From: a virus | DNA length: 64,000 bases | IMG/VR virus record: IMGVR_UViG_3300044691_000566 | Coordinates: 32,001-96,000 of that record | Strand: one strand, 5' to 3' | Shown: in pieces, positions 14,215 to 64,000 of the stretch | How positions within the stretch are numbered: position 1 is the stretch's first letter | How the letters are laid out: each line of letters begins with the position of its first letter | Notes under the pieces: model-generated | What the model was told of the DNA's origin: nothing | The model's database searches: none | The model's input: the letters and a program-made list of their open reading frames with translations, nothing else | Translations under genes and position numbers: made by a program

Positions 14215-14508
14215 ATGAATCAGAAGAAGACGAGTGCGGCGGAGCAACTCGCCAAGCTCTTCCACGACTCCTACGAGGAGCTGGCGCCCTCCCACGGTTA
14301 CGAGACCCGCGAGGCGTCCCGCAAGCCGTGGGAGGGCGTCCCCGAGAACAACAGGTCCCTGATGGTCGCGGTGGCCCAGAAGATCCTGGACTCCCAGGAG
14401 GACTCCGAGGACCTCCGCAAGCTCCGGGCCCTGGAGACCGCCGGGGTGGACAACTGGGACGGCTACGCGTACGCCATGTCGATCATGGACGGGGATGACG
14501 AGTTCTGA
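14215..14508 (+). CDS. hypothetical protein
   Basis: C-terminal L.ALE.AGVDNWDGY..A motif common in phage proteins. Confidence 0.75.
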   Translation: MNQKKTSAAEQLAKLFHDSYEELAPSHGYETREASRKPWEGVPENNRSLMVAVAQKILDSQEDSEDLRKLRALETAGVDNWDGYAYAMSIMDGDDEF

Positions 14509-14693
14509 TGGCGACGCCCAACATGCCCGCCGAGGAGTGGCCCGACCTGTCCGGCGACGAGCTGCGGCAGGTCGGGGAGGTCCTGAGGGGCGCCGACTAC
14601 ATGCAGGCCCACGAGGACGACGGGACGCCGGTCCCCGATCCCCCCCAAGTAGCCCACAACCCGCCAGAGATCACCCGGGAGGGTGCCGTATGA
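14508..14693 (+). CDS. hypothetical protein
   Basis: Overlap coupling. Confidence 0.6.
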   Translation: MATPNMPAEEWPDLSGDELRQVGEVLRGADYMQAHEDDGTPVPDPPQVAHNPPEITREGAV

Positions 14694-15466
14694 CGATCAT
14701 GGACAAGTTCGTGGAGCTGAACTCCGCCACCAAGTACCCGAGCATCGAGACGTACCACGTGCTGGGGGAGCGGGGCGCCCTGACCGAGGACGTGGGCCCG
14801 TTCGCCGGATACGAGGGCGATGCGCTCTTCACCGAGAAGGTGAACGGCACCAACGGCCGCATAGTCCTCTTCCCCGACGGTGATTTCCTCATCGGCTCCC
14901 GCGAGGAGCTGTGGTACGCCGACGGCGACCGGATCATCAATCCCTCGTTCCGTCTCGTGGAGACGCTCAAGCCGGTGGCCGAGGGTCTGACGGGTGACGG
15001 CACTCAGCACATCTCCGTGTTCTTCTTCGAGGTCTACGGCCACCAGATCGGCTCGGCCGCCAAGCAGTACACGGGCGAGGGCAACGTGGGCTACCGCCTG
15101 TTCGACCTGGCGTACGTGCCCCTGGAGGTCCTGGAGCTGGACCGCGCGAGGATCGCCTCATGGCGGCAGCACGGCGGTCAGCAGTGGGCCACGGAGCCGG
15201 TGCTCCAGCGGGTGGTCCAGGCGGAGGGCCTGACCCTTGCGCCGCGTCTGGGGACTGTACAGGCCGATTCCCTGCCGACCTCCGTGGCGGGCATGTCCAA
15301 GTGGCTGGAGCAGGTGTCCCAGTCCCTGGTGGGCCTGGACGCCAAGGCGAAGGGTCGTTCGGAGGGCGTGGTGCTGCGGTCCCCGCAGCGCACGGTCATC
15401 GCCAAGGCCCGCTTCGAGGACTACGAGCGCACCCTGAACCCCCAGCCGCAGCGCAAGCAGCGGTAG
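14690..15466 (+). CDS. ATP-dependent RNA ligase family protein
   Basis: Motif I TEKVNGTN; FEVYG; RLFD; EGVVLR; IAKARFEDY. Confidence 0.8.
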   Translation: MTIMDKFVELNSATKYPSIETYHVLGERGALTEDVGPFAGYEGDALFTEKVNGTNGRIVLFPDGDFLIGSREELWYADGDRIINPSFRLVETLKPVAEGLTGDGTQHISVFFFEVYGHQIGSAAKQYTGEGNVGYRLFDLAYVPLEVLELDRARIASWRQHGGQQWATEPVLQRVVQAEGLTLAPRLGTVQADSLPTSVAGMSKWLEQVSQSLVGLDAKAKGRSEGVVLRSPQRTVIAKARFEDYERTLNPQPQRKQR

Positions 15467-15480
15467 CCGTCCCCGCCCCA

Positions 15481-15563
15481 CAGAGCCCCCAAGGGATTTT
15501 TAAATCCTTGGGGGCTCTGGTCTTGCGCTCCAACAATCCTGTGAGTAGTGTTGACTCTGTCAG
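15481..15563 (+). promoter_or_regulatory. hairpin with TTTTTAAA centre + early promoter + box
   Basis: CAGAGCCCCCAAGG.../CCTTGGGGGCTCTG; CTTGCG-CTCCAACAATCCTGTGAG-TAGTGT-TGACTCTGTCAG. Confidence 0.85.
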
Positions 15564-15591
15564 CACGGCAACGACTCCCCCGGAGGCCACC

Positions 15592-15849
15592 ATGGCGATT
15601 GAACTCGCGCACAAGCCCGAGAACTCCAACCCCCAGAACCCGTACATCGTGATCAAGCACGTGGGGTCGGAGCTTCCCGAGTACATCGCGAGGGCGCCGT
15701 ACGGCATCTGGATCCGCACCGGCCGGGAGACCGCTCGTCCCCTCGGCTCCGGCCGGGGCATTGCGGACCTGGAGAGCGCCATCCGTGACGCCCAGTACCG
15801 CAACGCGAACTTCAACGCCCCCTCGGAGTCCGGCCAGATGTACGCCTGA
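15592..15849 (+). CDS. hypothetical protein
   Basis: GGAGG RBS. Confidence 0.75.
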   Translation: MAIELAHKPENSNPQNPYIVIKHVGSELPEYIARAPYGIWIRTGRETARPLGSGRGIADLESAIRDAQYRNANFNAPSESGQMYA

Positions 15850-15920
15850 TCCTCCCGAGCCCCCGGCGAACAACCGGGGGCCGCTCCTGCTCCGCCCAAC
15901 TGACTCCCCAGGAGGCCCAC

Positions 15921-16106
15921 ATGGCCGGTACCGCTCGCTCCACGGTCAAGTCCCAGCGCGGCAAGCTCGCCCGCTTCTCCGCCAACAAGGTCTTCATGTC
16001 GGCCAAGCCGTCCAGCAAGAAGATCTACATGCCGCCGCCGTCGGCCAGGGTGAGCGTCTTCCCCAGTGGCGTCGTGCGTGCCGGATCCTGCCTGGTGAAC
16101 CGATGA
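15921..16106 (+). CDS. small basic protein
   Basis: Conserved leader GACTCCCCAGGAGGCCCACATG. Confidence 0.7.
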   Translation: MAGTARSTVKSQRGKLARFSANKVFMSAKPSSKKIYMPPPSARVSVFPSGVVRAGSCLVNR

Positions 16107-16549
16107 CCGTCTACCGCGTCGTCCTGACGGCCATAACGGCCGCTGGCCGCCCTCTGCCGGACGAGTACCCCTTCGAGGTGGAAGTCGAGCAGTCCCCGCG
16201 ACACTGGCGCGAGGGGGACATGGTGACCGAGGCCATCACCCAGGCCGACAAGCTCTTCTACGCCCGTACCTCGTTCGTGTGCGGCGTGAAGCTGGGCGTG
16301 CGCCGGGTGGAGCGCCAGTGGGAGTCCGGCAAGGGCTGGACCGAGCTGGTCACCGCCTACCGGGCCACGCCGGGCACCTGGATCAAGCTGGAGTCCGTCT
16401 ACGACGGCCAGCCCTGGTGGGGATGGCGCTGTGTGGCCCGCTGGGAGCCCACGGGCGACGGCACGTGCCGTCTGATCACCACCCACGCCAGGAACCCGCA
16501 GGGGGGCGTCTACGGGCGTGACGACGTTTTCGAGAAGAGGAGGGTCTGA
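16103..16549 (+). CDS. hypothetical protein
   Basis: ATGA overlap. Confidence 0.7.
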   Translation: MTVYRVVLTAITAAGRPLPDEYPFEVEVEQSPRHWREGDMVTEAITQADKLFYARTSFVCGVKLGVRRVERQWESGKGWTELVTAYRATPGTWIKLESVYDGQPWWGWRCVARWEPTGDGTCRLITTHARNPQGGVYGRDDVFEKRRV

Positions 16550-16551
16550 CC

Positions 16552-16788
16552 ATGGTGGACACGATGTGGCTGGGCAACGCCGACGGTGAATACGTCGGCG
16601 TCGGCGAAGACCTGGACACGGTGATGGACGTGCTCAAGGCGGCCTTCGCCGAGGAGAAGGAGATGACGGACGAGGAGGCCGAGAAGCGCCTGGGCCAGGA
16701 CCTGAAGCTCCAGGACTATTTCGTCACCCTGGACGGGGTCCGGCAGCGCGACTACAGCGCAATTCGGGTGAACGTGCTGGGGAGTTGA
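16552..16788 (+). CDS. hypothetical protein
   Basis: GGAGG RBS. Confidence 0.75.
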   Translation: MVDTMWLGNADGEYVGVGEDLDTVMDVLKAAFAEEKEMTDEEAEKRLGQDLKLQDYFVTLDGVRQRDYSAIRVNVLGS

Positions 16789-16811
16789 CACTTCAAGGAT
16801 TGGAGAATGCA

Positions 16812-16970
16812 GTGAAGAAGCCCAAGCATGCGGCCGACCGCTGCTACCGCATCTACGACCGCGACAATTCCGCGCCCCAGCACTGCTCCGAGCCCGAGGG
16901 CCATGACGGCCTGTGCGGGACCAACTGGGAGTGGTGCGACCGGTACAACGACGGTTCGTGTTTGCTGTAG
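16812..16970 (+). CDS. small Cys/His protein
   Basis: HC..PEGHDG.C motif. Confidence 0.55.
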   Translation: MKKPKHAADRCYRIYDRDNSAPQHCSEPEGHDGLCGTNWEWCDRYNDGSCLL

Positions 16971-16974
16971 GGGG

Positions 16975-17016
16975 TTGACGCTCCAACAATCCTTGTAGTA
17001 GTCTTGACCCTGTCAG
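16975..17016 (+). promoter_or_regulatory. early promoter + box
   Basis: TTGACG-CTCCAACAATCCTTGTAG-TAGTCT-TGACCCTGTCAG. Confidence 0.85.
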
Positions 17017-17043
17017 CACCGAACGACTCCCCTGGAGGCCCAT

Positions 17044-17361
17044 ATGGCGCTCAAGCCCCTCTCCCGCAAGCTCGCCGAGCAGGCCCTCACCGCCGTCAAG
17101 GGCCAGTACAAGAGCTACATGGCGGACGGCGAGGAGTACGGCCCGAAGCTGGTCGAGGCGTGGGACGGCACCCACTGGGCGATCTGCTGGGACGAGGGCC
17201 CGTTCGAGTGGACGCTCAGCAGCCCCGAGGGCGGCATCGACAAGGACCTGTCGGCGATGATGGACCAGCTCGTGGAGACCCCCGCCGCTGAGGGCTTCCC
17301 CGAGGAGGTCTTCGCGGAGCCCTACTGTGGCTCGGTGCTGTGCCTGTACCCCAGCTCCTGA
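17044..17361 (+). CDS. hypothetical protein
   Basis: I.W..GPFEW...VFAEPY...L.LYP. Confidence 0.8.
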   Translation: MALKPLSRKLAEQALTAVKGQYKSYMADGEEYGPKLVEAWDGTHWAICWDEGPFEWTLSSPEGGIDKDLSAMMDQLVETPAAEGFPEEVFAEPYCGSVLCLYPSS

Positions 17362-17399
17362 GCACCACAGCCCGCCGGAGCTGCGATCCCGGCACCCAA

Positions 17400-17480
17400 T
17401 TCCCGGTCGTCTACTTGGTGAAGACGCTCCGTCGGGCCGCACCCGGGGGAGGGACGCTGGTTCGACTCCGGCACGGGAAG
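17400..17480 (+). ncRNA. tRNA-like RNA (Gln-type body) with extended, non-canonical anticodon arm
   Basis: Acceptor TTCCCG/CGGGAA; D arm GTCT-ACTTGGTGA-AGAC; T arm GCTGG-TTCGACT-CCGGC; long stem closed by CCGCA in place of the anticodon arm. Confidence 0.75.
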
Positions 17481-17512
17481 CGCCAGAGAACACCCGAGCA
17501 CAGGGAGCCCAT

Positions 17513-17830
17513 ATGCCCATGTTCAAGATCCAGCCCGCCTCGCGGATCGACAACCTCACGGCCCACGGCGATGTGGGGCTCCAGCGTCCGTACCCCGTCT
17601 ACGCCGACAACAAGGGCAACGTGGAGTTCCAGCGCTCCTTCCGGGGCCGGGTGACCCGCGTCGTGGGCTTCCAGAAGGACCTGGCCGTCCAGCAGATCGA
17701 CCTGTCGTGGAGCGAGGCCCAGAAGAACCCGGACAAGGTCGTGGGCATGTACCTGGTCACGGCCGACAGCAAGGGTGACCTCGGCGTGCACGACACCGCC
17801 GTGGAGACCTTCGAGGAGGTGGTGCTGTGA
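17513..17830 (+). CDS. hypothetical protein
   Basis: GGGAG RBS directly after the tRNA-like element. Confidence 0.8.
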   Translation: MPMFKIQPASRIDNLTAHGDVGLQRPYPVYADNKGNVEFQRSFRGRVTRVVGFQKDLAVQQIDLSWSEAQKNPDKVVGMYLVTADSKGDLGVHDTAVETFEEVVL

Positions 17831-18342
17831 GCATCGACAGAGTCCAGGTCGGCCGGATCTTCCGGCACAAGGCGGACGGCCGCCGCTACGTGCGAATCGA
17901 CCGCCTCTTCGATTCGCTCGATCAGCCGCCGGTCCCGGGCGTCTCGTTCGCCATCTGGGATCTCCGGGAGGGGGTGAGAGCGAAGTGGGAGGAGTTCTCC
18001 GTCCTGCCGGTTGCCATGTTCAATGAGCAGTACCGGTACGCGGCGCAGTTCTTCGAGAACCAGCAGGCCGAGATGGCCGAGGCCACCGCGATGCGCGAGA
18101 AGCTCCAGGCGGACATCGAAGCCGCCCTGGAGGCCGTCGGAGCCCAGGACCCGGCCGCCGTGGCCGGGCTGTTCGTCCGCCTGGTGCAGAACGAGTGCGC
18201 CCACCGTATCTACACCCACGACGGGTTCAAGGAGGGGTGTGCCGCAGGCTGCTGCGACTCCACCACGGACGACGCGGCCGAAGTGATCGAGGTGGAGATC
18301 ACCGACGCGGAGCGCGAGGAGCTGCTCGGGGAGAGCGCTTGA
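17827..18342 (+). CDS. hypothetical protein
   Basis: GTGA overlap. Confidence 0.75.
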   Translation: MSIDRVQVGRIFRHKADGRRYVRIDRLFDSLDQPPVPGVSFAIWDLREGVRAKWEEFSVLPVAMFNEQYRYAAQFFENQQAEMAEATAMREKLQADIEAALEAVGAQDPAAVAGLFVRLVQNECAHRIYTHDGFKEGCAAGCCDSTTDDAAEVIEVEITDAEREELLGESA

Positions 18343-18380
18343 CGCTCCAACAATCCTTGTAGTAGTCTTGACTCTGTCAG
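18339..18380 (+). promoter_or_regulatory. early promoter + box
   Basis: TTGACG-CTCCAACAATCCTTGTAG-TAGTCT-TGACTCTGTCAG. Confidence 0.85.
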
Positions 18381-18408
18381 CACGACGACGACTCCTCAGG
18401 AGGCCCAC

Positions 18409-19266
18409 ATGGCCCGTACCCGCGAAGACCTCATCGCCCAGGTGCTCAAGCTCAACGAGATGGCCAACCGCTCCAGCGAGGCCGACGATGCCGACGACGA
18501 CAACGGTGTGGCCCACGCCGAGATCGTGGACAACGCGACCCGCAAGGCGGCCAAGATCATGCGGCGCCACCAGATCACCGAGGCCGAGATCGGCCAGGCG
18601 CAGGCCGCCAAGGACGAGGAGTTCGTCCACTTCACGTTCTCGGTGCGCAACACCTACGGGCTGGGCAAGGAGCGCTCCACCGCCCTCCACCACGCCGTGA
18701 TCGTCCCCTTCGGCGGCAACTCGATGCGGACCGTCTACAAGTCGGCCAAGTCCGACACGGAGATGACCGTTTTCGCCCCGGCCAGCATCGCCGAGATGCT
18801 CAAGTCGCTGCTGTACAGCATCTCCCTCCAGATGGAGGAGGGCCTGAGGTCGGCGAGCAAGGGCGAGCGCCAGCGGATCGACGAGTCGGTCTTCTCCTGG
18901 ACCCAGGCGGAGATCAACAAGCAGGTCCTGCTCTTCCGCCGGGGCTACCTGCGGGGCTTCGCCTCCACGGTGGGCTCGCGCATCAAGGCCGCCCAGGACG
19001 AGGCCATGGAGGAGATCAAGCGGGAGCTGGAGGCCGAGGGCCGCTCGGTGTCGGCGGGCACGGAGATCGCCCTGTACGACTCCAGCAGGAAGGCGGGCGA
19101 CTTCATGAACGCCTGGTACACCGGTACCAGCGGCGGCGGGAAGCTCCGCAAGACGTCCAACCGCGCCCGGTCGTCGAGCAAGGGCATCGAGGCCGGGGCG
19201 CGGGACGGCCGCCGGGCCGACATCACCCCGCCCAGGACCGACCCGAACCGCCGCTCGTTGGTCTGA
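18409..19266 (+). CDS. DUF2786-like domain protein
   Basis: N-terminal I..V.KL..MA...A..KA.KIM.RH.I; FRRGYL.GFA..V..R. Confidence 0.7.
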   Translation: MARTREDLIAQVLKLNEMANRSSEADDADDDNGVAHAEIVDNATRKAAKIMRRHQITEAEIGQAQAAKDEEFVHFTFSVRNTYGLGKERSTALHHAVIVPFGGNSMRTVYKSAKSDTEMTVFAPASIAEMLKSLLYSISLQMEEGLRSASKGERQRIDESVFSWTQAEINKQVLLFRRGYLRGFASTVGSRIKAAQDEAMEEIKRELEAEGRSVSAGTEIALYDSSRKAGDFMNAWYTGTSGGGKLRKTSNRARSSSKGIEAGARDGRRADITPPRTDPNRRSLV

Positions 19267-19305
19267 TGGAGGACGGCCCGCCGGGAGCCGTAATCCCGGC
19301 ACCAT

Positions 19306-31489: not shown

Positions 31490-32344
31490 ATGGACAGCAT
31501 CGCGTTCCCCTGGCTCAAGCATCTGCCCGACGACGAACAGGTCGAGTGCCTGCGCGAGCTGAAGAAGATCCTGTCCCAGGGCAGCGGCTCCTGGGAGTTC
31601 CGCCTGAACTCCCTGGACGAAGCTCTGATCTCGTGGAAGTCCACGGCCGAGGTGTATGCCGATTCGGAGACGCTGGCGGCCCTCACCGCCAAGGTTCGTC
31701 AGGACGTGCTGACCGCCTTCGAGGTGGACGAGAACTACGCCTCCACGAGGTCGACGGCCCTCACCCCGTCCGAGGAGGCGCAGACCAAGACGGAGATCAC
31801 CGAATACCTGGAGCGCATGTACGGCGTCGGCGAGATGCCGCTCACCGTGGGTCCCGCGCCCCGGTTGCTCGACTGCGGCCTGTGCTACGAGGAGGACGGC
31901 GAGGAGGTCCACCCGCATCCGGAGTGCACCTGGGAGATCCCCTGTCCCCGCTGCGGCAAGCGCGTGGAAACGTGGTTCGACCGCTCGCTGTGCCCCGAGC
32001 CCTGCGGCTCGATGCACAACCGGTGCACCGACTGCGGCAACATCGTGGACCACTGCCCCATCGAGAGCGCCAGGGCGCAGGCCCGCTACAAGCCCGGCTC
32101 CGTCATCACCCAGGGCATCGGGCCCGGTTCGTGGCGCTGGGAAGTCGTCGATGTGCTCAACACCTGCTACCGGGTGCGTACGCTGACGGGTTCGACCTCG
32201 GGCTCGCCCACCTACTCCACCTGGGAGTTCGGCCTGTGCGAGGACGCCACCGTGCTGGAGTGGCAGAAGGACGGCCGTGAGGGCGTCATCGACGCCGAGG
32301 GCAACTCCAGCATCCCGGAGGAGGCGAAGACCGATGGCGACTGA
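31490..32344 (+). CDS. antitoxin-C-terminal-like domain + Zn fingers, paralogue 3
   Basis: AFPWLKHLPDDEQ..CL.EL...WKSTAEVYAD.E.LAAL. Confidence 0.65.
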   Translation: MDSIAFPWLKHLPDDEQVECLRELKKILSQGSGSWEFRLNSLDEALISWKSTAEVYADSETLAALTAKVRQDVLTAFEVDENYASTRSTALTPSEEAQTKTEITEYLERMYGVGEMPLTVGPAPRLLDCGLCYEEDGEEVHPHPECTWEIPCPRCGKRVETWFDRSLCPEPCGSMHNRCTDCGNIVDHCPIESARAQARYKPGSVITQGIGPGSWRWEVVDVLNTCYRVRTLTGSTSGSPTYSTWEFGLCEDATVLEWQKDGREGVIDAEGNSSIPEEAKTDGD

Positions 32345-44923: not shown

Positions 44924-46822
44924 GTGGCCAAGATCAGACTGTGTGACCGCTGCGGAGGAAGATCATCCCCGCACATTCCCCGGGAGCGCGTGGGCGACCA
45001 GATGCTCTGCCAGGGCTGCGCACACGCCGTCGCCCGCCAGCGCACCGCCACCACCCCCACCACCGACTTCTGGCCCGGCGAACACACCCCCGAGGGAACC
45101 CACCCCCTCCTCGCCCCGCTGCCCCCCTCCGTCTGGCGCCGCTACCACAGCACCCAGCACACCGCAGCCCCCGACGCCCCCGGCTACCCCAACCCGCACC
45201 ACCAGGAGATGCACGGCCCCGACAGCCCAGCCGCCCACGAGTGGTACCACGGCACCAGCACGTCCTTCGAAGGACCCCCCAAAAGCGCCACCGAACTCAT
45301 GAACGACCACCAGTACTGGGGCAACTTCGGAGCAGGCGACTGGAACAACCACATCGGCTCCCACTGGACGTCCCTCCACGGCATGGCCAAGGGCTTCCTC
45401 GCCGCCAGCAGCGCAGGCAACCGCGTCATCCACGCCAAGCTCCACATGAAAAACCCCGTCAAATACAACTCCCTGGACCACATGACGCACGACGCCTACG
45501 AGCGCCTGTCCGCCTCCGGGGACATGCAAGACGGCGGAGAACACGTCGGCAAACACCAGGACGACGCAGGAGACCACTCCTGCTGCTCCGGAGCCCTCCT
45601 GCGCTACGCCAAGGGCGAGCACCGCTCAGACGGCAAATACGGCCTGGAACGCTACCGCGACTCCCTGCGCGCCTCCGGCCACGACGGCATCCTCATGCGC
45701 AACAACACCGACGACCCGATCGGCCACTGGAACGCCATCCCCCTGTCCGCCGACCACATACAGATCACCAACAGCGGCTGCAACCGCCCCCACCACGACC
45801 CCCGCGACCACGACGACACCGAATTCGAAGACCACCGCAGCAAGCTCCTCGGGAACTGGCAGGAAGAAAAGCCCTACCACCCCGCCCAGTACACCCACGG
45901 CAAGCCCCTGCCCGGCCCCGGAACCGTCGACCACGCACACACGCAGAAGAAGGCCGACACCTTCCCCCACCTCCAGCCCCACCAGAACCGTCCAGACGCC
46001 GACCCCCACACCCACGGCGAAAACCTGGACGAACTGCACGAGGAGAACGAACCCTCCTTCGGCGGCGAATACTGCGCGCACTGCGACGACCTCACCGACC
46101 ACACCACCGAGCAGCACGGCAAAGAACACGACCTACGGCACCTGGAAACCGAACACGGCTACGGACCCGACCACTACCTGCACCACGCACTCCAGGAAAT
46201 GAGCCCGCAGGAAGTGGCCGACCACCACGAACACGAACACACCACCGACTTCCCCAGCGGCGACTTCCCCACCCATACGCACTTCCCGAAGGAGGCCCGT
46301 ATGGCCGGGGCCATGAACAAAACCGCCCACGACAGCGGCGACGGCGCCACCATCTTCCACTGCCCCTTCTGCGGCTCCGGCCAGGTCATCGCCCGCAGCG
46401 ACCGCACCACCGAGTGCGAGTACTGCCACGCCTGCTTCACCGTCCAGGTCCAGCCCCAATTCCCCGCATTCCCCCAGACCATCGACGGAATGCCCATGCA
46501 GGTCCCCGGCATGCCCGGCCAGATCGGCGGACCCCCCGCAGCACCCCCCGGCGCCGACGGCACCATGCCCCCCGGCCAGGACCCCATGGCCGACCCCATG
46601 AACGGCGGCATGCCCGGCGAAGAAGACCCCGCAGCCCAGGACGAGCAGGACCCCGCCGCCGAAGAAGACAGCGCACCCCCCTTCGCCAAGGGCTCCATGC
46701 TCCGCACCGCCAGCGGCACCCCCCTGGACTGGGACAACTACCTCCGCCACCTCGCCATCAGGCACGCCGACAACGACCAGCGAGACGCCGTGATCGAACG
46801 CGTCCGGGGAGAACGACGATGA
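44924..46822 (+). CDS. multidomain protein with ART-PolyVal-like ADP-ribosyltransferase and Zn ribbons
   Basis: WYHGT...G.HWTS...A..F...V.HAKL.MKNP...LRASGHDGI; CxxC at both ends. Confidence 0.7.
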   Translation: MAKIRLCDRCGGRSSPHIPRERVGDQMLCQGCAHAVARQRTATTPTTDFWPGEHTPEGTHPLLAPLPPSVWRRYHSTQHTAAPDAPGYPNPHHQEMHGPDSPAAHEWYHGTSTSFEGPPKSATELMNDHQYWGNFGAGDWNNHIGSHWTSLHGMAKGFLAASSAGNRVIHAKLHMKNPVKYNSLDHMTHDAYERLSASGDMQDGGEHVGKHQDDAGDHSCCSGALLRYAKGEHRSDGKYGLERYRDSLRASGHDGILMRNNTDDPIGHWNAIPLSADHIQITNSGCNRPHHDPRDHDDTEFEDHRSKLLGNWQEEKPYHPAQYTHGKPLPGPGTVDHAHTQKKADTFPHLQPHQNRPDADPHTHGENLDELHEENEPSFGGEYCAHCDDLTDHTTEQHGKEHDLRHLETEHGYGPDHYLHHALQEMSPQEVADHHEHEHTTDFPSGDFPTHTHFPKEARMAGAMNKTAHDSGDGATIFHCPFCGSGQVIARSDRTTECEYCHACFTVQVQPQFPAFPQTIDGMPMQVPGMPGQIGGPPAAPPGADGTMPPGQDPMADPMNGGMPGEEDPAAQDEQDPAAEEDSAPPFAKGSMLRTASGTPLDWDNYLRHLAIRHADNDQRDAVIERVRGERR

Positions 46823-47022: not shown

Positions 47023-47327
47023 TCGCCAGGGAGGTCCTCGCCCTGATCGAGGGCACTCCCTCGATCACCCTGCCCGGCATCCCCGCCAACGGCATCAACT
47101 GCCAGGGATCCAGATTCCACTCCCCGCGCCCCATGCTCCTCCACCGCGTGGAACTGCCCCACAACCCCGGACAGCCCATCTACCTCTGCGGCACCTGCGC
47201 AGACAACTACCACCTCCTGCACGCCCTGGAACAGCCCCGAAAGGTGCCCTGGCCCGTCCGACGGTGCTTCGGAAACATGATCCGGGCCCTCGTGCCCCCC
47301 AACACCCAGGAGCACGACCGTGCCTGA
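47019..47327 (+). CDS. Zn-binding late protein
   Basis: C...H...LCGTC. Confidence 0.65.
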   Translation: MIAREVLALIEGTPSITLPGIPANGINCQGSRFHSPRPMLLHRVELPHNPGQPIYLCGTCADNYHLLHALEQPRKVPWPVRRCFGNMIRALVPPNTQEHDRA

Positions 47328-49425
47328 GACGCCCCCCACCCCGGACGAATGGAAGCAGGCCGTCTTCCAGCGCCTCGGCAAGGCCATGATCCGAGGAGGA
47401 GCAGCCCGGACCGACGGCACCCCCGAAGCCGCCCAGATGAAGGCCAACCGCCGCGTCGCCATGAAGAAGACCGGCGCCGCCACCCCCGCGACCGCCTTCG
47501 CCACCGGCCGCCCCCGCGACCCCCTCTTCTACTGGAAGCAGAACAACCTCCCCTACGAGGTCGACGACGAAACCCAGCTCCGGCAGCTCCGCATGTACTG
47601 CCGCCTCCTCTACCAGACCCACCCCGTCATCGCCTCATGCATCGACATCTACACCAAATACCCCCTCCTCGGCATGGAACTGCGCTGCAAAGACGAGCAG
47701 ATAACCCAGTTCTACGAAGACCTCTTCTTCACCGAGGACGGCCTCAACTACGACGAATTCCTCCTCGACGTCGGCCGTGAATACTGGACCGTCGGCGAAG
47801 CATGGCCCTTCGCCACCTTCAATGAATCCCTCGGCATCTGGGACGACGAAGAACTCCTCAACCCCGACGACGTCTCCGTACAACGCTCTGCATTCCTCAA
47901 AGAACCCCGCTTCCTCATCCGCCTCCCCGAAACCATCCGCGAAATCATGCAGAAGCGCTCCCCCGCCTGGGAGTACGAGAAGCTCATGCAGGTCTACCCC
48001 GAACTGTCCCAGTACGGCGGCGCCGACGACATGATGCCCGTCTCCAACATTCTGCTCCGCCAGATGAAATTCAAAGCCGACACCTTCTCCAAACGCGGCA
48101 TCCCCATCCTCATGCGCGCCATGCGAGCCGTCATGCAGGAAGAAATGCTCAACGCCGCCCAGGACGCCATTGCCGACCGCCTCTACACCCCCCTCGTCCT
48201 GGTCAAACTCGGCGCCAGCGCCACCGACCTGGGCACCGAAGTCCCCTGGATCCCCACCCCGGACGACCTCGAAGAGTTCATGGAGTCCCTGGACGCCGCC
48301 CTCGCCGCCGACTTCCGCGCCCTGGTGCACAACTTCGCCGTCACCATGGAACCCGTCTTCGGCCGCGAAAACATGCCCGACATGACCCCCGACTTCGAAC
48401 GCCTGGAAGACCGCATACTCCAGTCCTTCGGCATGTCCAAAACCATGCTCAACGGCGCCTCCTCCGGCGAGACCTACGCCGCCGACGCCCTCAACCGCGA
48501 CCTCGTCTCGCAGCTCCTCACCACCTATCAGGACATGATCAAGCGCCACTTCCACCAGCGCGCCCTCGTCGTCGCGGAGGCCCAGGAGCACTACGACTAC
48601 GACGAGCGCAACGGCAAGCGCTTCGTCAAAATGGAAGAAATCCTGGAAATCGACGAGGAAACCGGCGAAGAACGCATCGTCGAACAACCCAAACTCCTCG
48701 TCCCCGAACTGGTCATGCAGACCATGTCCCTCAGCGACGAATCCGCCGAACGCGAATTCTTCGAAGCCCTCCGCGCCGCCGGAGTCCCCATCTCGATGAA
48801 GACCCGCCTCATGGCCTCCGGCATCGACTTCGAAGACGAGGTGGAGCGCACCCAGGACGAGCAGGTCCAGCTCGCCATCGCCGAGCAGGAGACCCGCAAG
48901 AAGATCTACCAGGGCCTGAAGGACAAGGGCCTCCCCATCCCGGCGGACATGAAGATCGACTTCCAGCCCGCCGCCGAGCAGGCCCAGCCCCCGGCCATGC
49001 CCATGCCACCCATGCGCGCACCCATGCTCGGCACCGACGACATCACCCCCACCCCCAATCTGGCCCCCACCCAGATGGACCTCATGGCCGACGAGCCCGC
49101 CGGAGGCGTCCCCATGCCCGGCATGGACGCCCAACCCGTGGATGGCTCGGAGACCGGCGGCGAAGCCCCCGCCGAAGGCGCCCAGCGCCCGCCCGAGAGC
49201 GACGAGCAGCGCGGCGGCATGCCCAAGCCCGCCGCCCTCTTCCGGCAGTCCGAGCGCACCCGCAAGCTCGCCCGGGAGCTGTACCGGCCCCGCGAGAAGC
49301 CCGACGACGTACCGCTCAGCGAATGGGACCCCATCGGCAAGTTCAGCCAGCCCAAGGTGGTCGGCGTCCGTCGCCACATCGAGGTCGACCCGAAGACGTT
49401 CTACGAGGAGGCAGTAAATGCCTAA
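47320..49425 (+). CDS. putative portal protein
   Basis: 701 aa; R.YCR..Y..HPVI..CIDIY..YP, GEAWP, LLNPD.V, RG.P.L.R, PL.L.KLG pattern of large-phage portals. Confidence 0.7.
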   Translation: MPETPPTPDEWKQAVFQRLGKAMIRGGAARTDGTPEAAQMKANRRVAMKKTGAATPATAFATGRPRDPLFYWKQNNLPYEVDDETQLRQLRMYCRLLYQTHPVIASCIDIYTKYPLLGMELRCKDEQITQFYEDLFFTEDGLNYDEFLLDVGREYWTVGEAWPFATFNESLGIWDDEELLNPDDVSVQRSAFLKEPRFLIRLPETIREIMQKRSPAWEYEKLMQVYPELSQYGGADDMMPVSNILLRQMKFKADTFSKRGIPILMRAMRAVMQEEMLNAAQDAIADRLYTPLVLVKLGASATDLGTEVPWIPTPDDLEEFMESLDAALAADFRALVHNFAVTMEPVFGRENMPDMTPDFERLEDRILQSFGMSKTMLNGASSGETYAADALNRDLVSQLLTTYQDMIKRHFHQRALVVAEAQEHYDYDERNGKRFVKMEEILEIDEETGEERIVEQPKLLVPELVMQTMSLSDESAEREFFEALRAAGVPISMKTRLMASGIDFEDEVERTQDEQVQLAIAEQETRKKIYQGLKDKGLPIPADMKIDFQPAAEQAQPPAMPMPPMRAPMLGTDDITPTPNLAPTQMDLMADEPAGGVPMPGMDAQPVDGSETGGEAPAEGAQRPPESDEQRGGMPKPAALFRQSERTRKLARELYRPREKPDDVPLSEWDPIGKFSQPKVVGVRRHIEVDPKTFYEEAVNA

Positions 49426-52717: not shown

Positions 52718-52751
52718 CTGTCACCCCTTCCGCCAGCGCGCGGAAGGGGTG
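52718..52751 (+). promoter_or_regulatory. candidate late promoter
   Basis: CTGTC-N20-GAAGGGGTG. Confidence 0.75.
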
Positions 52752-52768
52752 AAAGCACAGGAGGACGC

Positions 52769-55700
52769 ATGGGGCTGGGACGCCGCGAGGCCGCACACGA
52801 CACCGCGCTGTCGCGCAAGCAGGCCGGGGACTATCCCACCGACTACTCGGTGGGCCAGAAGGTCATGACGGTCGACGGCATCCCGGGCCGTGTGGAGGAG
52901 GTCATCTTCTCCCCGGCCATGGGGGAGGAGTACGACGTCGTCCTGGACGATGGGGCCGGGCGCGGGACGTATGCGCCCTCCCAGCTCTCCCCGTACGCCA
53001 CCAGCACCCACCAGGCCACCGGGACGCACCTGGCCTCGGACGACTACGAAGAACTTACGGACGTCTTGCGCGACAGGCCCGACATCGCCGTGCCGGTGCG
53101 GTTGGGGTCCCTCCAGGTGCAGGCGTCCACGGAGCCCCTGCCGGGATACGGCACGCCGGGGCCGCGTCCCGAGCCGGAGCAGCCGGATGACGACGAGCAC
53201 TACGACCCGCCGTGCGCCTACCCGCACGAGGGGCCGTGCCCGGTGTGGCCCGAACCCCACGACCACCACACGTCGTCCGTGCACCTCGCGATGCCCCCCA
53301 AGTCGGGGAAGCCCCCCGTGGGCGAGTACTCGTACAAGGTGCATCCCTCCAGCGGCCTGTTGACCGGCTACATCAACGGCGAAGAAGCCGGGTACATCAA
53401 CCACACCCCGTACCGGAACGAGGACGAGTACGGCCACTACGAGGACTACGGCGACGGGGACGACAACCACGAGCACCACCCGTTCAGTGCCGGTCACAAG
53501 GCGGGCGCCGTCAAGGTCCACATGCTGCACACCAACCCCGCGCACCGGGGATCCGGTGTCGCCTCGGCGATGATGGACTCGCTCTACCACCACTACCCGA
53601 ACGCCTGGATCAACCACGGCTACCGGACGGACAATGGGTCGACGTGGTGGAACAAGTACGACGAACCGGACCCCGGTCGCAACGTCCACAACGTGAGCCC
53701 CGACGACCACTCGCACCGGCTGAAGAAGCACTGGACGAGCCACTTCGATGTCGACGACGTGGTCAGCGACATGGACTCCCTCTCCCGCACCAACGAGGAG
53801 CAGGGTCACGAGGGCAACGCGCACCGGCAGTGGGATCAGACCGAGCACGGCGGGACCGGCGCCAGTCCTTCCTGTGAAGACTGTGACTCCGACAGGGACC
53901 ACTACTGCCACGACTGCGAAAAGTACTACCCGCACCGGTACGAGGGCGACACACACGGCGATGATTGCCCGAAGCGGTGCGAGGAGTGCGACTCCGACGG
54001 CGAGCACGAGTGCCCCACGTGCAAAGAGTGGGTCCATCACGACGACCTGGAGCAGCACGAGCAGGACCACCAGGACGAGCATGCGGCCGACGACGAGCAC
54101 GACCCCGTCCAGGTCGGCCTGCACAACTCCGTCACGGTCCCCCTCACCCGCAAAGAGCACGACTTCGTGCACAATCCGGCCATCCCGGCGGACAAGCGGG
54201 CCCACCACCTGCTGAACCGGATCGGGCGGGGCGCCATGCCCAGCCACGACTGGGACGTCGACCCCAAGACCTCGCACGAGATCGAGCACGACTCCCACGA
54301 GCAGACCCCCTACTCTCGGGGCCTGCACACGACGGTGACCCTGCATGCCCACCCGCTGAACGAGCACGAGGCCCAGGACGGTTTCGGCAACGACAGCTAC
54401 ACCCGTGAAGGCGAGCGGTCGCACTTCGACGCCGTCCCCACCAAGTTTCGGCTGAAGGGCATGTCCTGGGGTGACGGCCCCCGGGAGGCGGAACATCACC
54501 ACGAGTTCCCCGGCCACGGCCAGCGGGTGGCCACCGCGCCCAGCACGTACAACAGCCAGCCCGGGAACTACCCCCGCAGCCTCAAGCCCCTCCTGCGCCA
54601 GCCGGGCCACGAGCGCCCGGCCCCCGAGGTCCACCCCGAGCAGGGCAAACTCTTCGCCCGGAAGACGGCCGCGACCCGTGCCGACTTCCAGTTCGAGCAC
54701 GAGGACACCGACATCCGTGGCATCAAGCACGGCTACAAGAACCACCTGCGGGCCATCCACCCGGAGACGGGGGAGCACGCCGGGACGCTGACATACTTCG
54801 CGCCCACGCGTAAGGGTGCCCCGGTGATCGTGGACGATCTGACGACGTCGCACCCGGGCGCGGGCTCCGCGCTGATGGACGAGGTGGAATCCCGGCACCC
54901 GGGCAGCCGGATTCAGCACGGCGTGGACAAGCCCATGAGCAAGGGCAAGCCGCACTACGACCACTCGGACTATGGCAAGGCCACCGACTGGTCCGCCCAC
55001 TACCCGAACCTGCCGGAGCAGGTCCACCGGGGCCTGAACGTGCGCCTGGAGGGTTCCGACGCCCGAGCGGTGACGCGCGGGGAGGGGTCGGCCGCCGACC
55101 ATGCCCAGATCCTGCACAGCGCCTTGCGCGATGGCGGACCTCTCGGCATGCACTGGTCGTCGGACGAGGAGACCAGCCGGAACTTCGCACACCGCAACAT
55201 TCGGGACCCCCGTAAGGACGTGCCGGTAATCCTGCACGCCGACCGGCCCGCCCAGAAAGACCTCGAAACCCGGCCGAACGTGCTCAAGAACAACGGGGTG
55301 TGGATGCACGACTACGAGCACGGCGACGCCGAGGTGCCGGTGCGCCGGGGCCGGTCGGTGAACCTCCGGGGGATCTCCTGGAAGCCGGACGCCCCGCACT
55401 CGGAGGCCGACGCCAGCGGCTGGGTGCACCACACCTTCGGCGAGGGCAGTCAGCACACTGCCGCTCTGTACGCGGCCGTCGGGGGCGAACCGGTCTACCG
55501 GGGCTTGAACCTCGGGCTGGCGAGCGACGAGGACGTGGAGCATCTGCACCGGGACCCGGTGGGGTACCTGAACCAGAAGGGCTTCCGGCCCCACGAGGCG
55601 GGCATCCACTGGTCCACTGACCCGTACACCGCGCACAACTTCGCCCTGGCCCACGATGAGGACGACGACGACGCCACTCCGCACACCCACGGGGTGATCC

Positions 55701-57871
55701 TGCACGGCCGGGCCGAGCCTCAGCACGTTGTGCAGCACGGTACCCCGGAGTGGGACGACTACGCCGATCAGTACGAGATCCACGGGGAGAACAGTCCCGA
55801 GCAGGAGCGCACCGTACGCACGGGTGCCCCCGTGCAGATCACCCACGCCACGGCGGTCTCCAAGCCGGTATGGGGCGACGAGGGCCGTGAGACCGAGGTG
55901 CCCTGGGGGAGCCAGGTCACCGCCAACCAGCAGGACGGCTTCCTCGCCGACACCGCCGACGAGGCCCCCGAGGAGGAGATCGTCTCCCAGGGCGCCTTCG
56001 ACCCGTACGCCATCCTCACCACCGCTGCCGCCGATCCGGAATTCCGCTTCCACGTCACGGCCGCCTGGGCCGACGTCCGCCGCAAGGCGAAGCGGATCCG
56101 CTCCGAGGGCGGCGTACGCATCACCCTGGCCACCGACGGCGTGGTCTTCGGCGAGGTCAAGGGCGACCACCACGTCTACGAGACCGGCGTACAGCGCTTC
56201 CCCGGCACCAAGCACTCCGTGGCCACCTACACCTGCGGCTGCAAGTGGGGCGCCTACCACTGGGGCGCCCCTGACGACTTCAGCCACTTCGCCGGACGTA
56301 TGTGCTCCCACGCCCTCGCCCTCCAGTACGAGGCCCAGTCCCGGGGCATGTTCGGCCGGGACGTGGAGGTCGACTCCACCAAGCCCGAGTGGGTCCCGAA
56401 GAAGGTCGTCCTCCGCTACGACATCGACGACGGCACCAACCGGATGGTGCGCTCCAGCACGAAGACGGCAGCAGCAGAGCCCAATCCGCACGGTCTGTAC
56501 CTGCGTTTCGGCAGGTGGCCCCACGACGAGCGCTCCACCAACAACATCACGGGTGCGAAGGAAGACGGGGTCAGCGTCTACGACCTCGATCATCACGGCC
56601 GCCCCATGGACCCGGACCCGGACGACAGTCGGACCAACATCGACGACGGGGACCGCAACTGGCCCAAGGAGGAGATGCACGGCCGGGTGGGCAAGGCCGA
56701 GCGCGACCGCAAGTGGGGCAATGACCATCCTGACCGTCAGGCCCACATCGTGAGGGGCGACATCGCAGGCTTCGGTCACGACAATGAGCCGCTGCTCAAC
56801 AACGTCGAGCGGATCGGCGACTGGATCGATCACCGGCATCTGTTCTTCAGCGGCAAGCCGCATCCCCTCGCCCGCAGTGAGGACCACGACGACTATGAGC
56901 CGCCGGAGGAGGAGCCCCAGCACCGTACGGCTGCCCTGGAGGTCACCCCGCTGGTGGCCCTCGCGCAGTGGTCCCGTGCGCAGGGCGACGACCCGGAGGA
57001 GTTCGCGTTCCTCCTGGGCATGCACGGCCTGACGGCCGCGATCAGCTCCCCCTGGGGCGAGCCGCAGGCCCCGGCCGCCAACTACACCCCGGGACCGACC
57101 AAGCCCCGCAACCCCGCCGAAAACCCCGGATCCACCGGCTGGGCCACCCAGTCCGACCCCGACAACTGGGATTCGATCAACCCCAACGACCTGGGGGACC
57201 GCGTCGCGGCCCTGGACGAGTTCCTGTTCGAGGGTGCCATCCCGCAGGAGATCGCCCAGTCCGACGACCCGATGGCCTCCTCCCCGGGCACTGAGGACAC
57301 CCCCCTGGAGAACGGCGTGACGGCGTACTGGCGGCACATGGAGGACGTGGCGATGACCACGGAGGCCATCTCGATGCTGGGGGAGCAGGACGGCCCCCTC
57401 TGGCCGTCCGGGCCCAAGGGCGGCCGGGGCGGTCCGATGCCGCCGGGACACGCGCAGATGCCGGAGCACGAGGAGCTGACCCCCGGAGCCGAGGCGGATC
57501 TGCATGTGCAGCCGGAGGGGGCGCTTCCGTACACCGACGGCGACGGCCCGGACCTGACCGACGACGAGTCCCTCACCCCGTCCCGGACCGCCTCCCTGGG
57601 CAGCAGCATCCTGGAACAGTTCCAGGCCACCGCCTCCCACTTGGCCCCCGGCGGCTCCACCAGACCCTCCGGACGCGGGGGTGTCGCGGCGGAGATCGCC
57701 GCCCAGGCCCGGGAAACCCTCAGCAAGATCGCGCTGAAGGACTACAGCCCCGCAGAGCAGGCTGCGATCATCAATGAGGGTGTCAACGTCAGGGCCTCCA
57801 ACCTGGACCGCCTGGACGTGACCGGCACGCACTACGAGTCTCAAGAAGACGAGGACGGGATATGGCCGTAA
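52769..57871 (+). CDS. 1700-aa polyvalent protein: SH3-like, 2 GNAT, Zn cluster, 2-3 ADP-ribosyltransferase-like domains, SWIM
   Basis: [11 protein letters not shown] and HPGAGSALM (GNAT); VHRG..HWSSD..AEV and VYRG..HWSTD..EQE (R-S-E ART); CGC...CSH (SWIM). Confidence 0.75.
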
Positions 57872-62168: not shown

Positions 62169-64000
62169 ATGCTCAAGTACGCGAGCGCCCAGATCATGAC
62201 GGCCGTGATGGCCCCGCAGGACGCGGGCCGCCGTGAGCTGCGCCGGTTCAGCCACCGGCACCACTTTTCGTATGAGGTGCGACCCGGGTACCTGTACGTG
62301 CGCTCTCGCGCCATCTCCAGCCGCTGCAACGACAACTTCGACGAATTCCCCGCCGAAGAACTCGAAAAGGGATACCGGACTTTCATCGGCAAGCCGGTCT
62401 TCGTCAATCATTCGAACGAGGACCACCGCCGGGCCCGGGGTGTGATTATCGACGCGGTCCTGCACAAGGACAGCAACCGCGACGGAACGAAAGACTGGTG
62501 GGTCGAAGTCCTCCAGGAGGTCGACGCCCTGCGCTTCCCCCGCCTGGCCGCCGAGATCCTCAACGGCAACATCGCGCGGACTTCGATGGGCACCGACGTG
62601 TCCCACAGCATCTGCTCCGCCTGCGGCAACCGGGCCACCACTCCCGCCGAATACTGCACGCACATTCCGGCATCAAAAGGAATGATGCTCTACCGGACCA
62701 CCGCGTCCGGCCAGAAGGTCGGCGAAGTCATCCGCGAGACCTGCTACGGCCTGAAGTTCTTCGAGAACTCGCTGCTCGTGGAGCCCCCGGCGGATCCGAC
62801 GGCGTATTTCACCGGGGTGGACGACCGGGGCCTGAAGGGCACCGCCATCCAGCGCGACCAGGCATCCCGCGCCGCCGACCCCTTCTTCTATGCCTCCACC
62901 CAGAAGACCGCCGCGCAGGTCCCGGGGCTGTCCTGGGACGAGGTCGGTGAGCGGCACCCCGAGATCTACGGCGACTCGGAGATCCACGGGGAGCGCGCCG
63001 AGGGCGCTGACGGGGAGATGATCGGCTCGGCGGCCAACGACCTGGCCCACTCCACGCCGGACGACCCCGACGCCGAGGCGCACTCGATCCACGACCTGAC
63101 CTTCCACCGCGCGATGATCGACCCGCACGCCATCGACCACAAGCGGAACGGCATCAGCGACGGCCGGGTGGCCTCCGCCATCCAGGGCTACAGGGAGCAC
63201 CCGGAGCAGATGCCGCCGGTCGTGCTCGTGCACCGGCACGGCGTCTTCCAGGTCGCCGACGGCCACCACCGCACCGAGGCCGCCAAGGCTGTGGGAATGA
63301 GCAAGATCCCCGCCTACGTGACCAAGTCGCCCTACCCCCGCACGCCCAGCGGCTGGGATGCCAAGGGCCCCTACCACGGGGCGGAGACGACCCGCTGGAG
63401 CCCGCCGCAGGTCCGGCCCAGGAAGGACCCGGGGCAGACTCCCGAAAGTTCCGGGTACACCCAGGACCGCATGTTCGAGGCCGCGAAGAAGGACCCCCGC
63501 TTCGCCGAAGTCGGCCTGAAGCAGGACGACAAGGGCCACTACGTGACGACGCACCGTGCGCGCTCCGACTCCTACCCGACCCCCGAAGCCATCCCCCAAT
63601 CGGTCGTGGACAAGATCGCCGCCACTGGCTCCCGCACCACCCTGGACGAGCTGATGACCGAGGGCACCAAGCAGGCCGCCCAGCAGTACCCCAACCCAGC
63701 GGACCACCCGTGGTTCAAGGAGGCCGGGCTCAGTCACGAAAACGTCATCCACCACTGGGACCTGGCCTCCCCCGAGGAGAAGGCACAGGGCAAGCGCTGG
63801 TACCCCGACGCGCACCTGGTGGCTCGATCCATTGCCCGACTGGACACCCGCATCAAGACCGACAAGGAGGCCGCCCACAAGGGCGGCGGGGTCCTGAGCG
63901 CGTACAGCCCGCAGCAGAACTGGTGGGCCAACCAGCACAACGCGGCGCGGTCCTTCCACGAGCAGCGGGCCCTGGGCAAGGGCGAAGGCATCATGATCAT
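62169..64000 (+). CDS. prohead maturation protease fused to ParB/Srx-like and further domains (3' truncated; absent from the ORF track)
   Basis: Translated by hand: N.N.D.F...EL...Y.TFIGKPVFVNH...G.I.D...TSMG.....CS.CGN...YC.H...FFE.S..V.PPAD; later PPVVLV...VADGHHR. Confidence 0.8.
   Translation, partial: MLKYASAQIMTAVMAPQDAGRRELRRFSHRHHFSYEVRPGYLYVRSRAISSRCNDNFDEFPAEELEKGYRTFIGKPVFVNHSNEDHRRARGVIIDAVLHKDSNRDGTKDWWVEVLQEVDALRFPRLAAEILNGNIARTSMGTDVSHSICSACGNRATTPAEYCTHIPASKGMMLYRTTASGQKVGEVIRETCYGLKFFENSLLVEPPADPTAYFTGVDDRGLKGTAIQRDQASRAADPFFYASTQKTAAQVPGLSWDEVGERHPEIYGDSEIHGERAEGADGEMIGSAANDLAHSTPDDPDAEAHSIHDLTFHRAMIDPHAIDHKRNGISDGRVASAIQGYREHPEQMPPVVLVHRHGVFQVADGHHRTEAAKAVGMSKIPAYVTKSPYPRTPSGWDAKGPYHGAETTRWSPPQVRPRKDPGQTPESSGYTQDRMFEAAKKDPRFAEVGLKQDDKGHYVTTHRARSDSYPTPEAIPQSVVDKIAATGSRTTLDELMTEGTKQAAQQYPNPADHPWFKEAGLSHENVIHHWDLASPEEKAQGKRWYPDAHLVARSIARLDTRIKTDKEAAHKGGGVLSAYSPQQNWWANQHNAARSFHEQRALGKGEGIMI

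Follow-up and report, generated by a model that had tools for sequence, protein, structure and literature searches.

What is the function of a phage protein of 1700 residues, encoded among the genes for head assembly, in which domains resembling ADP-ribosyltransferases (ARTs), acetyltransferases and a zinc finger follow each other along a single chain? The question is raised by a stretch of 64,000 nucleotides (hereafter the window) spanning positions 32,001 to 96,000 of the IMG/VR virus record IMGVR_UViG_3300044691_000566, a single contig of 159,746 bp. The gene at issue, the product of which we call P0001, is one uninterrupted frame of 1700 codons at positions 52769-57871 of the plus strand. 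A sequence-only reading of this locus had described an array of effectors serving host takeover or counter-defence immediately after injection, and our analysis finds the same intact frame with its modules in the order that had been listed. What that reading missed is the published class of polyvalent proteins, the shuffling of cassettes on a fixed frame and a short motif recurring at the joints between cassettes. We regard it as reasonably probable that P0001 is a polyvalent head protein, which would be built into the prohead, cut, and ejected so as to ADP-ribosylate and acetylate host targets; it is the analogy with Alt of phage T4 and with polyvalent proteins that suggests packaging, injection, takeover of the host and both enzyme activities.

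The organization of the protein becomes evident from its relatives. A large protein search returned 226 of them, about 940-2900 residues long and in many cases encoded on contigs of ~150 kb, which cover the query densely over residues 1-110, 1075-1225 and 1400-1700, with low and patchy coverage in between. The BLAST blocks recur at differing places in different relatives, and profile maps give the order N-terminus, cassettes, SWIM domain, cassettes, C-terminus in essentially every one of them. The family of P0001 consists of a fixed frame, formed by the N-terminal block, the SWIM domain and the C-terminus, that carries swappable enzyme cassettes; the SWIM-containing frame is the probable carrier. 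Cassettes present in relatives and missing from P0001 include Arr-ms, ART-PolyVal, NUDIX, ParB, ParE/RelE, 2H phosphoesterase and inteins, the matches to Arr-ms and ART-PolyVal falling in cassettes other than the ART-like domain described below. Domain libraries reveal little of this organization. The whole protein matches in Pfam only a weak GNAT (residues 193-277) and a sub-threshold DUF6098 (residues 1319-1356), and neither PDB sequences nor NCBIfam gave any match; ten segments scanned separately against Pfam added nothing new for the ART-like, SWIM or second GNAT regions. PHROGs and a tblastn search of phages recognise residues ~1088-1197 only, a region that recurs in large proteins from phages of the Bxz1, Finch, Myrna and E3 types, and a scan of viral contigs with the whole protein led to one locus only. 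For the N-terminal block, putatively SH3-like according to the sequence-only reading, there was no family match in Pfam, and an ESM Atlas look-up of residues 1-125 gave no usable result.

Polyvalent proteins, described by Iyer, Burroughs, Anand, de Souza and Aravind in 2017, have ARTs as their commonest modifying enzymes, often with GNATs adjacent (PMC5512222; PMC9503650). P0001 resembles them (PMC5512222) in having many unrelated domains of enzyme and effector type within one very large phage polypeptide, with ART and GNAT units as neighbours, and in its location among packaging, portal, head and other late structural genes, an order that is kept in relatives; as for those proteins, delivery with the DNA is predicted. 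Moreover, its relatives carry the Pfam domains ART-PolyVal, Arr-ms, ParB and NUDIX. It differs from them in that its frame combines an N-terminal block, a SWIM domain and a C-terminal block instead of being of MuF, zinc peptidase or DarB type, in that its main ART-like domain is not recognised by Pfam and its joints bear a conserved short motif, and in that the protease, instead of forming a C-terminal domain of P0001, is encoded by a gene nearby, together with further cargo.

Three copies of one ART-like domain of ~150 residues are present in P0001, which we name the degenerate unit, ART1 and ART2. Pairwise BLAST hinted at their kinship, and iterated profile searches within the collected set placed residues 441-591, 740-904 and 907-1046 in one family. 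A HMMER scan with residues 740-1075 over 1.84 billion representatives retrieved 181 proteins, many of them stand-alone forms of 124-200 residues. In the alignment of the ART2 family a Gly, a His, a Trp and the E-x-E motif are invariant and R-G is nearly so; likewise, little or no variation is seen at the R-G, H-W and E-x-E positions in alignments of 40-58 relatives. The motifs VHRG/HWSSD/DAEV and VYRG/HWSTD/EQE, which had been noticed from the sequence, are indeed found at residues 752, 795 and 853 of ART1 and at residues 909, 947 and 1011 of ART2, the second set with the support of these alignments; the first acid of the acidic motif is Asp instead of Glu in ART1. The degenerate unit, which had also been singled out, is linked to the family by profile search. 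Because its losses (table 1) are conserved in 12 relatives, it looks like a retained copy without catalytic function.

Structural evidence for the ART fold comes from a model of ART2, to which ART1 and the degenerate unit are joined by profile search only. ART2 was folded alone because, in a joint MAFFT alignment of ART1 and ART2, all relatives fell on ART2. Its AlphaFold2 model (residues 905-1060, alignment of 58 rows) has a predicted local distance difference test score (pLDDT) of 91.1 and a predicted template modelling score of 0.86. A Foldseek comparison with the PDB, the check called for by the sequence-only reading, returned the ART fold, whose core is a split beta-sheet that binds NAD+, with pertussis toxin S1 first (probability 0.98-1.00, E 1.3e-3) and the Rhs toxins TreX and TreTu, CARDS toxin, EcPltA, cholera A1 and typhoid toxin in the next rows. 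An independent structural scan of 48,161 chains matched TreX (Z 6.1, root-mean-square deviation 3.8, 100 aligned residues) and pertussis S1 (Z 5.5, deviation 3.8, 116 aligned residues), and nearly all 50 of its rows for ART2 are of the ART fold, including LT, DT, PARPs, Scabin, Arr, Tpt1 and ParT. In the model, strand 1 carries the Arg, the H-W-S motif belongs to a strand that leads into a helix, and E-x-E opens a strand. The modelling shows ART2 to have the ART fold with an intact catalytic set of R-S-E type, and ADP-ribosyl transfer is predicted for it; judged from the same model, the ART-like domain is a previously unnamed ART-fold family lying outside current domain libraries. The proposal that the chain contains ART domains with the R-S-E triad holds for ART2, by structure and residues, and fails for the degenerate unit, which has neither the Arg nor the Ser/Thr.

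In a library of viral structures, ART2 is best matched by uncharacterised phage proteins of small size and by portions of multidomain proteins, those of Myrna, Bigswole, Stubby, Pupper and Stormageddon among the latter. A candidate from a PDB search with the ART2-family profile, 2kxi, was below threshold (E 1.3) and absent from the fold searches, and was dropped.

On which molecules would these units act? ART2 shares with pertussis S1, cholera/LT A1, TreX and TreTu the fold and the order and placement of the Arg, the Ser strand and the Glu-x-Glu. It differs from these toxins in its identity of 15-18%, its smaller size (~150 residues), the H-W-S/T that stands for S-T-S and its lack of delivery subunits; since P0001 is encoded by a phage and directed at bacteria, the similarity does not extend beyond the fold. 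That the ART-fold units have nucleic acids or small molecules as their substrates, or hydrolyse NAD+, the cargo then countering immunity based upon NAD+ or ADP-ribose instead of serving takeover, is an unlikely alternative given that the closest structures (pertussis S1, TreX, TreTu and cholera A1) are protein-modifying R-S-E toxins and that ARTs targeting proteins typically have E-x-E. It draws support from relatives, in which the units are paired with Arr-type ARTs modifying small molecules, with NUDIX and with 2H phosphoesterase, a set that processes ADP-ribose, and from the departure of the conserved H-W before Ser/Thr from the classical S-T-S motif.

The second type of enzyme cassette is GNAT. 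The two GNAT domains previously proposed are real by sequence comparison, and acetyltransferase activity is predicted for them. Unit 1 scores 15.8 bits on PF00583 within the whole protein and 21.0 bits when scanned alone (cut-off 20.7); unit 2, scanned alone, has no match in Pfam. Colinear counterparts in the relatives P0024, P0025 and P0028 exceed the same cut-off with 31.9-43.5 bits, the lowest value being that of the P0025 counterpart of unit 1, and those of unit 2 scoring 36.4 and 43.5 bits. Pairwise comparison and iterated profile search relate the two units to each other. Both are short, about 100-130 residues, and have a loop of the form Q/R-x-x-G-x-G/A for acetyl-CoA, which in unit 1 reads R-G-S-G-V-A. 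The loop of unit 2, S-H-P-G-A-G, keeps both Gly and is missing the Q/R; this unit and its closest counterparts have a deletion of 4 residues directly before the retained G-x-G.

A separate observation concerns residues 120-591 (positions 53126-54541), in which a spacer, GNAT unit 1, zinc ribbons and the degenerate ART-like unit always travel together in relatives; the segment has no internal joint motif and resembles one composite cassette of ~470 residues. The CxxC cluster reported at ~53870-54060 lies within it, as four CxxC pairs at residues 369-418.

The central part of the frame contains the SWIM finger that had been placed at ~56060-56345. Its C-x-C-x(n)-C-x-H signature is formed by C1156-G-C1158, a spacing of 20 residues and C1179-S-H1181, and is kept in the family consensus; in Pfam the region has no match, including to PF04434 (E up to 10). 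In a model of residues 1060-1400 (44 rows, mean pLDDT 75.8), the best Foldseek rows for the SWIM half are ZSWIM8, with probability of 0.92-0.99 but E of 0.1, and the top two of the independent scan are ZSWIM8 (Z 5.8, deviation 3.3, 87 aligned residues) and Shu2 (Z 3.5), both SWIM proteins. Inteins are usually located at functionally critical sites. One is inserted in the relative P0010 (residues ~1411-1807) exactly before the Cys matching C1156 of P0001, and another in P0007 (residues ~1287-1686) exactly before the Cys matching C1179; one of the two carries a LAGLIDADG domain. The SWIM finger is thus supported by its signature, by the fold matches and by the placement of inteins on cysteines that are zinc ligands.

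After the SWIM domain comes the unit that had been described by the strings YLRFG, GVSVY and EPLL, which are present at residues 1244, 1267 and 1340 and belong to a DUF6098-like cassette. It does not reach the gathering cut-off of PF19593 (22.9 bits vs 27.2), matching profile positions 87-123 of 141 only, and six relatives match the profile in the same partial way, with 18-25 bits. The only structural rows that cover the unit in the model (residues 1236-1383) are ART-fold proteins with Z of 2.1-3.0, and R1246, S1269 and E1340 lie on strands or at their start. The conservation of these three residues says little because the DUF6098-like family is shallow; profile-profile comparison with the ART-like family gave a probability of 0.2%, that is no link, and an ESM Atlas look-up of residues 1236-1390 gave no usable result. 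We take a fourth ART-fold unit at this place as a lead only, suggested by the model.

How could so many enzymes be released from a single chain? Stand-alone homologues of the ART-like domain nearly all end in x-[K/R/T]-A, and P0001 has [K/T]-A dipeptides at residues 590, 634, 738, 898, 1052, 1234, 1388 and 1423. Peaks of BLAST breakpoints, obtained independently, are at residues 603, 633, 902, 1050, 1234, 1384 and 1423, so that the candidate sites at 898, 1052, 1234, 1388 and 1423 coincide with them. When dipeptides within 7 residues of 1159 similarity breakpoints in 178 long relatives were counted, TA was the most enriched of all, 4.3-fold; after dereplication, [T/K]A occurs in 41% of 773 joints vs 12% of 1500 control windows (odds ratio 4.9), a statistic that still keeps some shared ancestry among the proteins compared. 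The logo of the joints has K, H or R in P3, T (84%) or K in P2, A in P1 and A or S in P1', with Q-A, V-A and ...A↓M-P as variants (the arrow marks the joint). A site of the Ala↓Ser type would be reminiscent of herpesvirus assemblin. Judged from sequence, the x-[T/K]-A↓[A/S] joints are probably cutting sites of a protease. A candidate is encoded downstream, in a gene fusing a head maturation protease (match to phrog_18299 over residues 57-206, E 1e-23) to cargo domains.

That protein has its protease domain at residues ~28-213, followed by ~1000 residues of cargo comprising DUF7178, a D-G-H-H-R ParB-like motif, a weak GNAT, zinc ribbons and a Pro/Gln/Gly-rich tail. It contains K-T-A↓A (residue 248) right after the protease domain, where its similarity to an IMG/VR homologue breaks. 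Several x-T-A sites are also present in the product of a 632-residue gene at 44924-46822, which matches neither the ART-like profile (E up to 1e-3) nor Pfam.

One may object that P0001 is packaged and delivered as an uncut giant with multiple enzymes, its joints being inherited domain ends or flexible linkers. Some polyvalent proteins, e.g. the virion RNA polymerase of N4, are packaged unprocessed (PMC5512222), and since the small stand-alone homologues end in x-K/T-A without needing any cutting, the tripeptide could be the domain's own C-terminus; the absence of the motif from the major head protein points the same way. Against this, the same x-[T/K]-A tripeptide closes unrelated types of domain (ART-like, GNAT, SWIM, DUF6098-like and pieces of the C-terminal frame), the P1' position is biased toward A or S, and the sites that were modelled either end the last strand of ART2 (residue 1052) or fall in stretches with pLDDT <50 (residues 1234 and 1388), i.e. 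at a domain end or in linkers of low confidence; the similar K-T-A↓A of the neighbouring gene lies at a breakpoint after the protease domain. Consequently, we consider an uncut giant to be unlikely.

Other phages carry the same modules in split form. On phage contigs of 94 kb (L006:6999-8839), each module, whether GNAT, ART-like or of another kind, has a small gene to itself, and these genes abut or overlap by 1 base and lie near ribonucleotide reductase, not near head genes; on a short contig (L005:43-920), an ART-like gene overlaps an Arr-like gene. Given that other phages have small individual genes for these modules, fusion combined with cutting would be a way to bring ordinary early enzymes into the virion. 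Taken with the split genes, the joint pattern suggests that the prohead protease cuts the chain into single domains. Beyond this, we advance as a tentative idea, which may well prove wrong, that the joints are a cutting code for the adjacent prohead protease and P0001 a polyprotein releasing changeable single-domain enzymes inside the capsid, including ARTs of the R/H-W-S/E-x-E type and possibly the DUF6098-like unit as an ART-fold enzyme.

Table 1. Features of P0001 and its surroundings (positions in the window; residues of the protein; the arrow marks the joint)
Feature	Position	Strand	Remarks
Ribosome-binding site AGGAGG	52759-52764	+	4 nucleotides before ATG; read from the sequence
Whole gene of P0001, 1700 residues	52769-57871	+	GC content at codon position 3, 0.91; 226 large relatives
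Conserved N-terminal frame block, residues 1-119, ends VQA↓S	52769-53125	+	Common to 117 relatives
GNAT-type unit 1, residues ~180-330	53306-53758	+	R-G-S-G-V-A loop at residues 260-265; PF00583
Zinc-ribbon-like CxxC...CxxC, two pairs, residues 369-418	53873-54022	+	From sequence; faint zinc-ribbon matches in Pfam only
Degenerate ART-like unit, residues 441-591	54089-54541	+	N453 at the Arg position; no Ser/Thr motif; single Glu
GNAT-type unit 2, residues 635-738	54671-54982	+	Short form; related to unit 1
ART1, residues 739-898, ends HTA↓A	54983-55462	+	R754; H-W-S-S 795-798; D-A-E 853-855
ART2, residues 899-1052, ends VTA↓N	55463-55924	+	R911; H-W-S-T 947-950; E-Q-E 1011-1013
Central frame domain with SWIM finger, residues 1075-1234, ends KTA↓A	55991-56470	+	Shared with 130 relatives and Bxz1-type phages
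DUF6098-like cassette, residues 1235-1388, ends RTA↓A	56471-56932	+	R1246, S1269 and E1340 conserved
Conserved C-terminal frame, residues 1389-1700	56933-57868	+	Partly Pro/Gly-rich; last ~50 residues shared with LinStu gp96
Portal gene	47320-49425	+	phrog_2833, E 4e-156
Prohead protease fused to cargo domains, 1231 residues	62169-65864 (window ends at 64000)	+	phrog_18299; candidate processing enzyme

The genomic setting can now be considered. The plus strand is taken as the coding one because the frame of P0001 reaches a guanine-plus-cytosine (GC) content of 0.91 at codon position 3, whereas the minus-strand open reading frame at 52721-57844 peaks at position 1; the latter was rejected as the mirror frame of a high-GC gene. 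The position of P0001 inside a block for head assembly is supported by the synteny of portal, protease and major head protein, since the gene order runs from the portal, 41% identical to the portals of Bxz1-type mycobacteriophages, through P0001 and the protease-cargo gene to a 174-residue protein and the major head protein of 329 residues. On an IMG/VR contig of 154 kb the genes follow one another just as they do in the window. Assemblies of Streptomyces include several relatives of P0001, on contigs of ~150 kb, so a Streptomyces host fits, and the phage, a Bxz1-like myovirus of ~160 kb, most likely infects this genus. P0001 has an unusually high content of His (7.3%), Asp and Pro, the His residues often forming H-H or H-x-H runs inside and between modules. 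Elsewhere on the same genome, at 14304-19274 of the plus strand and ~12.7-17.7 kb before the start of the window, a second large open frame of ~1650 codons encodes a single ART-like unit along with several units of GNAT type, all from the families found in P0001, which brings the multi-cargo proteins of the phage to three or more.

Between the portal gene and P0001 there is a 1094-residue tail-type protein, and P0001 is followed by two small open reading frames, a collagen-like fibre gene and endolysin. Such neighbours would suit a P0001 that serves the structure or assembly of the head, or of the region joining head and tail, without ever being delivered, its enzymes acting late in the producing cell; so would the far better conservation of the frame blocks (N-terminus, SWIM and C-terminus) in comparison with the cassettes, the inteins that mark the SWIM site as essential, and the absence from Pfam and PHROGs results of any known domain for capsid targeting or ejection. 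Two considerations render this quite improbable in our opinion: the rapid shuffling of conflict-type enzymes such as ART, Arr, NUDIX, RelE/ParE and ParB is the pattern published for delivered polyvalent proteins (PMC5512222, PMC9503650), and three to four ART-like units would be needless in a purely structural protein.

The closest known counterparts are in cultured phages. LinStu gp96 (Bxz1-type) and gp16 of Rhodococcus phage Finch are large proteins encoded after the portal and sharing the SWIM domain with 34-39% identity, LinStu gp96 having also the C-terminal tip of P0001; directly after them, LinStu gp97 and Finch gp17 are homologues of the protease with cargo, 40-45% identical. They differ in their cassettes, one of which is annotated LysM, and are annotated only as hypothetical or LysM.

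A functional precedent is offered by T4 Alt, a head-packaged ART that is trimmed by the prohead protease gp21 and injected (as summarised in PMC9503650). P0001 is comparable in that it contains ARTs, belongs to a large myovirus and is made late, and packaging, cutting by a head protease and injection are proposed for it in turn; it is unlike Alt in having several ART-like copies plus GNATs per chain and, in Pfam, no detectable sequence relation to Alt/VIP2. The suggestion of an Alt-type ART consequently did not stand, and the domain is placed in the wider fold class only. According to PMC10052503 and PMC7411985, giant phages of the SPN3US and phiKZ type process many head-internal proteins at a short motif and eject them into the cell. 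P0001 would share with these inner-body proteins the processing at a short motif, which in its case is deduced from sequence. The prohead cutting motif of T4 ends in Glu, unlike the candidate motif of P0001, which ends in Ala; the processing motif of the SPN3US/phiKZ type ends in Glu too.

We return to the proposal that P0001 is a polyvalent head protein. It would be built into the prohead via its frame, and the neighbouring prohead protease would probably cut the joints to give single domains of about 100-180 residues; the released pieces would exit with the DNA and, early in infection, host targets would be ADP-ribosylated at the expense of NAD+ and acetylated with acetyl-CoA. Several points weigh against this proposal. 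No Pfam ART family matches the segments of P0001 (E up to 10) or 40 members of the family (E up to 1), and the structural scores of ART2 are moderate (Z near 6, Foldseek E near 1e-3), so the case for an ART rests on the uniformity of the match lists and on the placement of catalytic residues. ART1 and GNAT unit 2 deviate from the consensus and may be weak or inactive. P0001 has no Phage_Mu_F in Pfam, no MuF family in PHROGs and no known capsid-targeting domain, and the tail-type, fibre and endolysin genes adjoining it mean that the local context is not purely one of head genes. To the ancestry retained in the joint statistic must be added that the major head protein is without any [T/K]A, so that a classical protease substrate provides no confirmation of the motif. 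In the literature, nothing relevant was found on the virion proteomics of Bxz1-, I3- or E3-type phages.

The general concept of polyvalent proteins has already been published, and the gain here is in detail and testability rather than in a new principle. The exact candidate cutting sites that we give can be checked by virion mass spectrometry, and the proposal is testable at the bench because related phages are cultured, those of Bxz1 type on M. smegmatis. An ART-fold family missed by current domain libraries has members in metagenomic phage proteins, numbering hundreds, and cultured phages such as Myrna, Bigswole and Stormageddon have it at the level of the fold. If the proposal is true, large actinophages would hold in their capsid a ready-made and quickly exchangeable kit of host-modifying enzymes.

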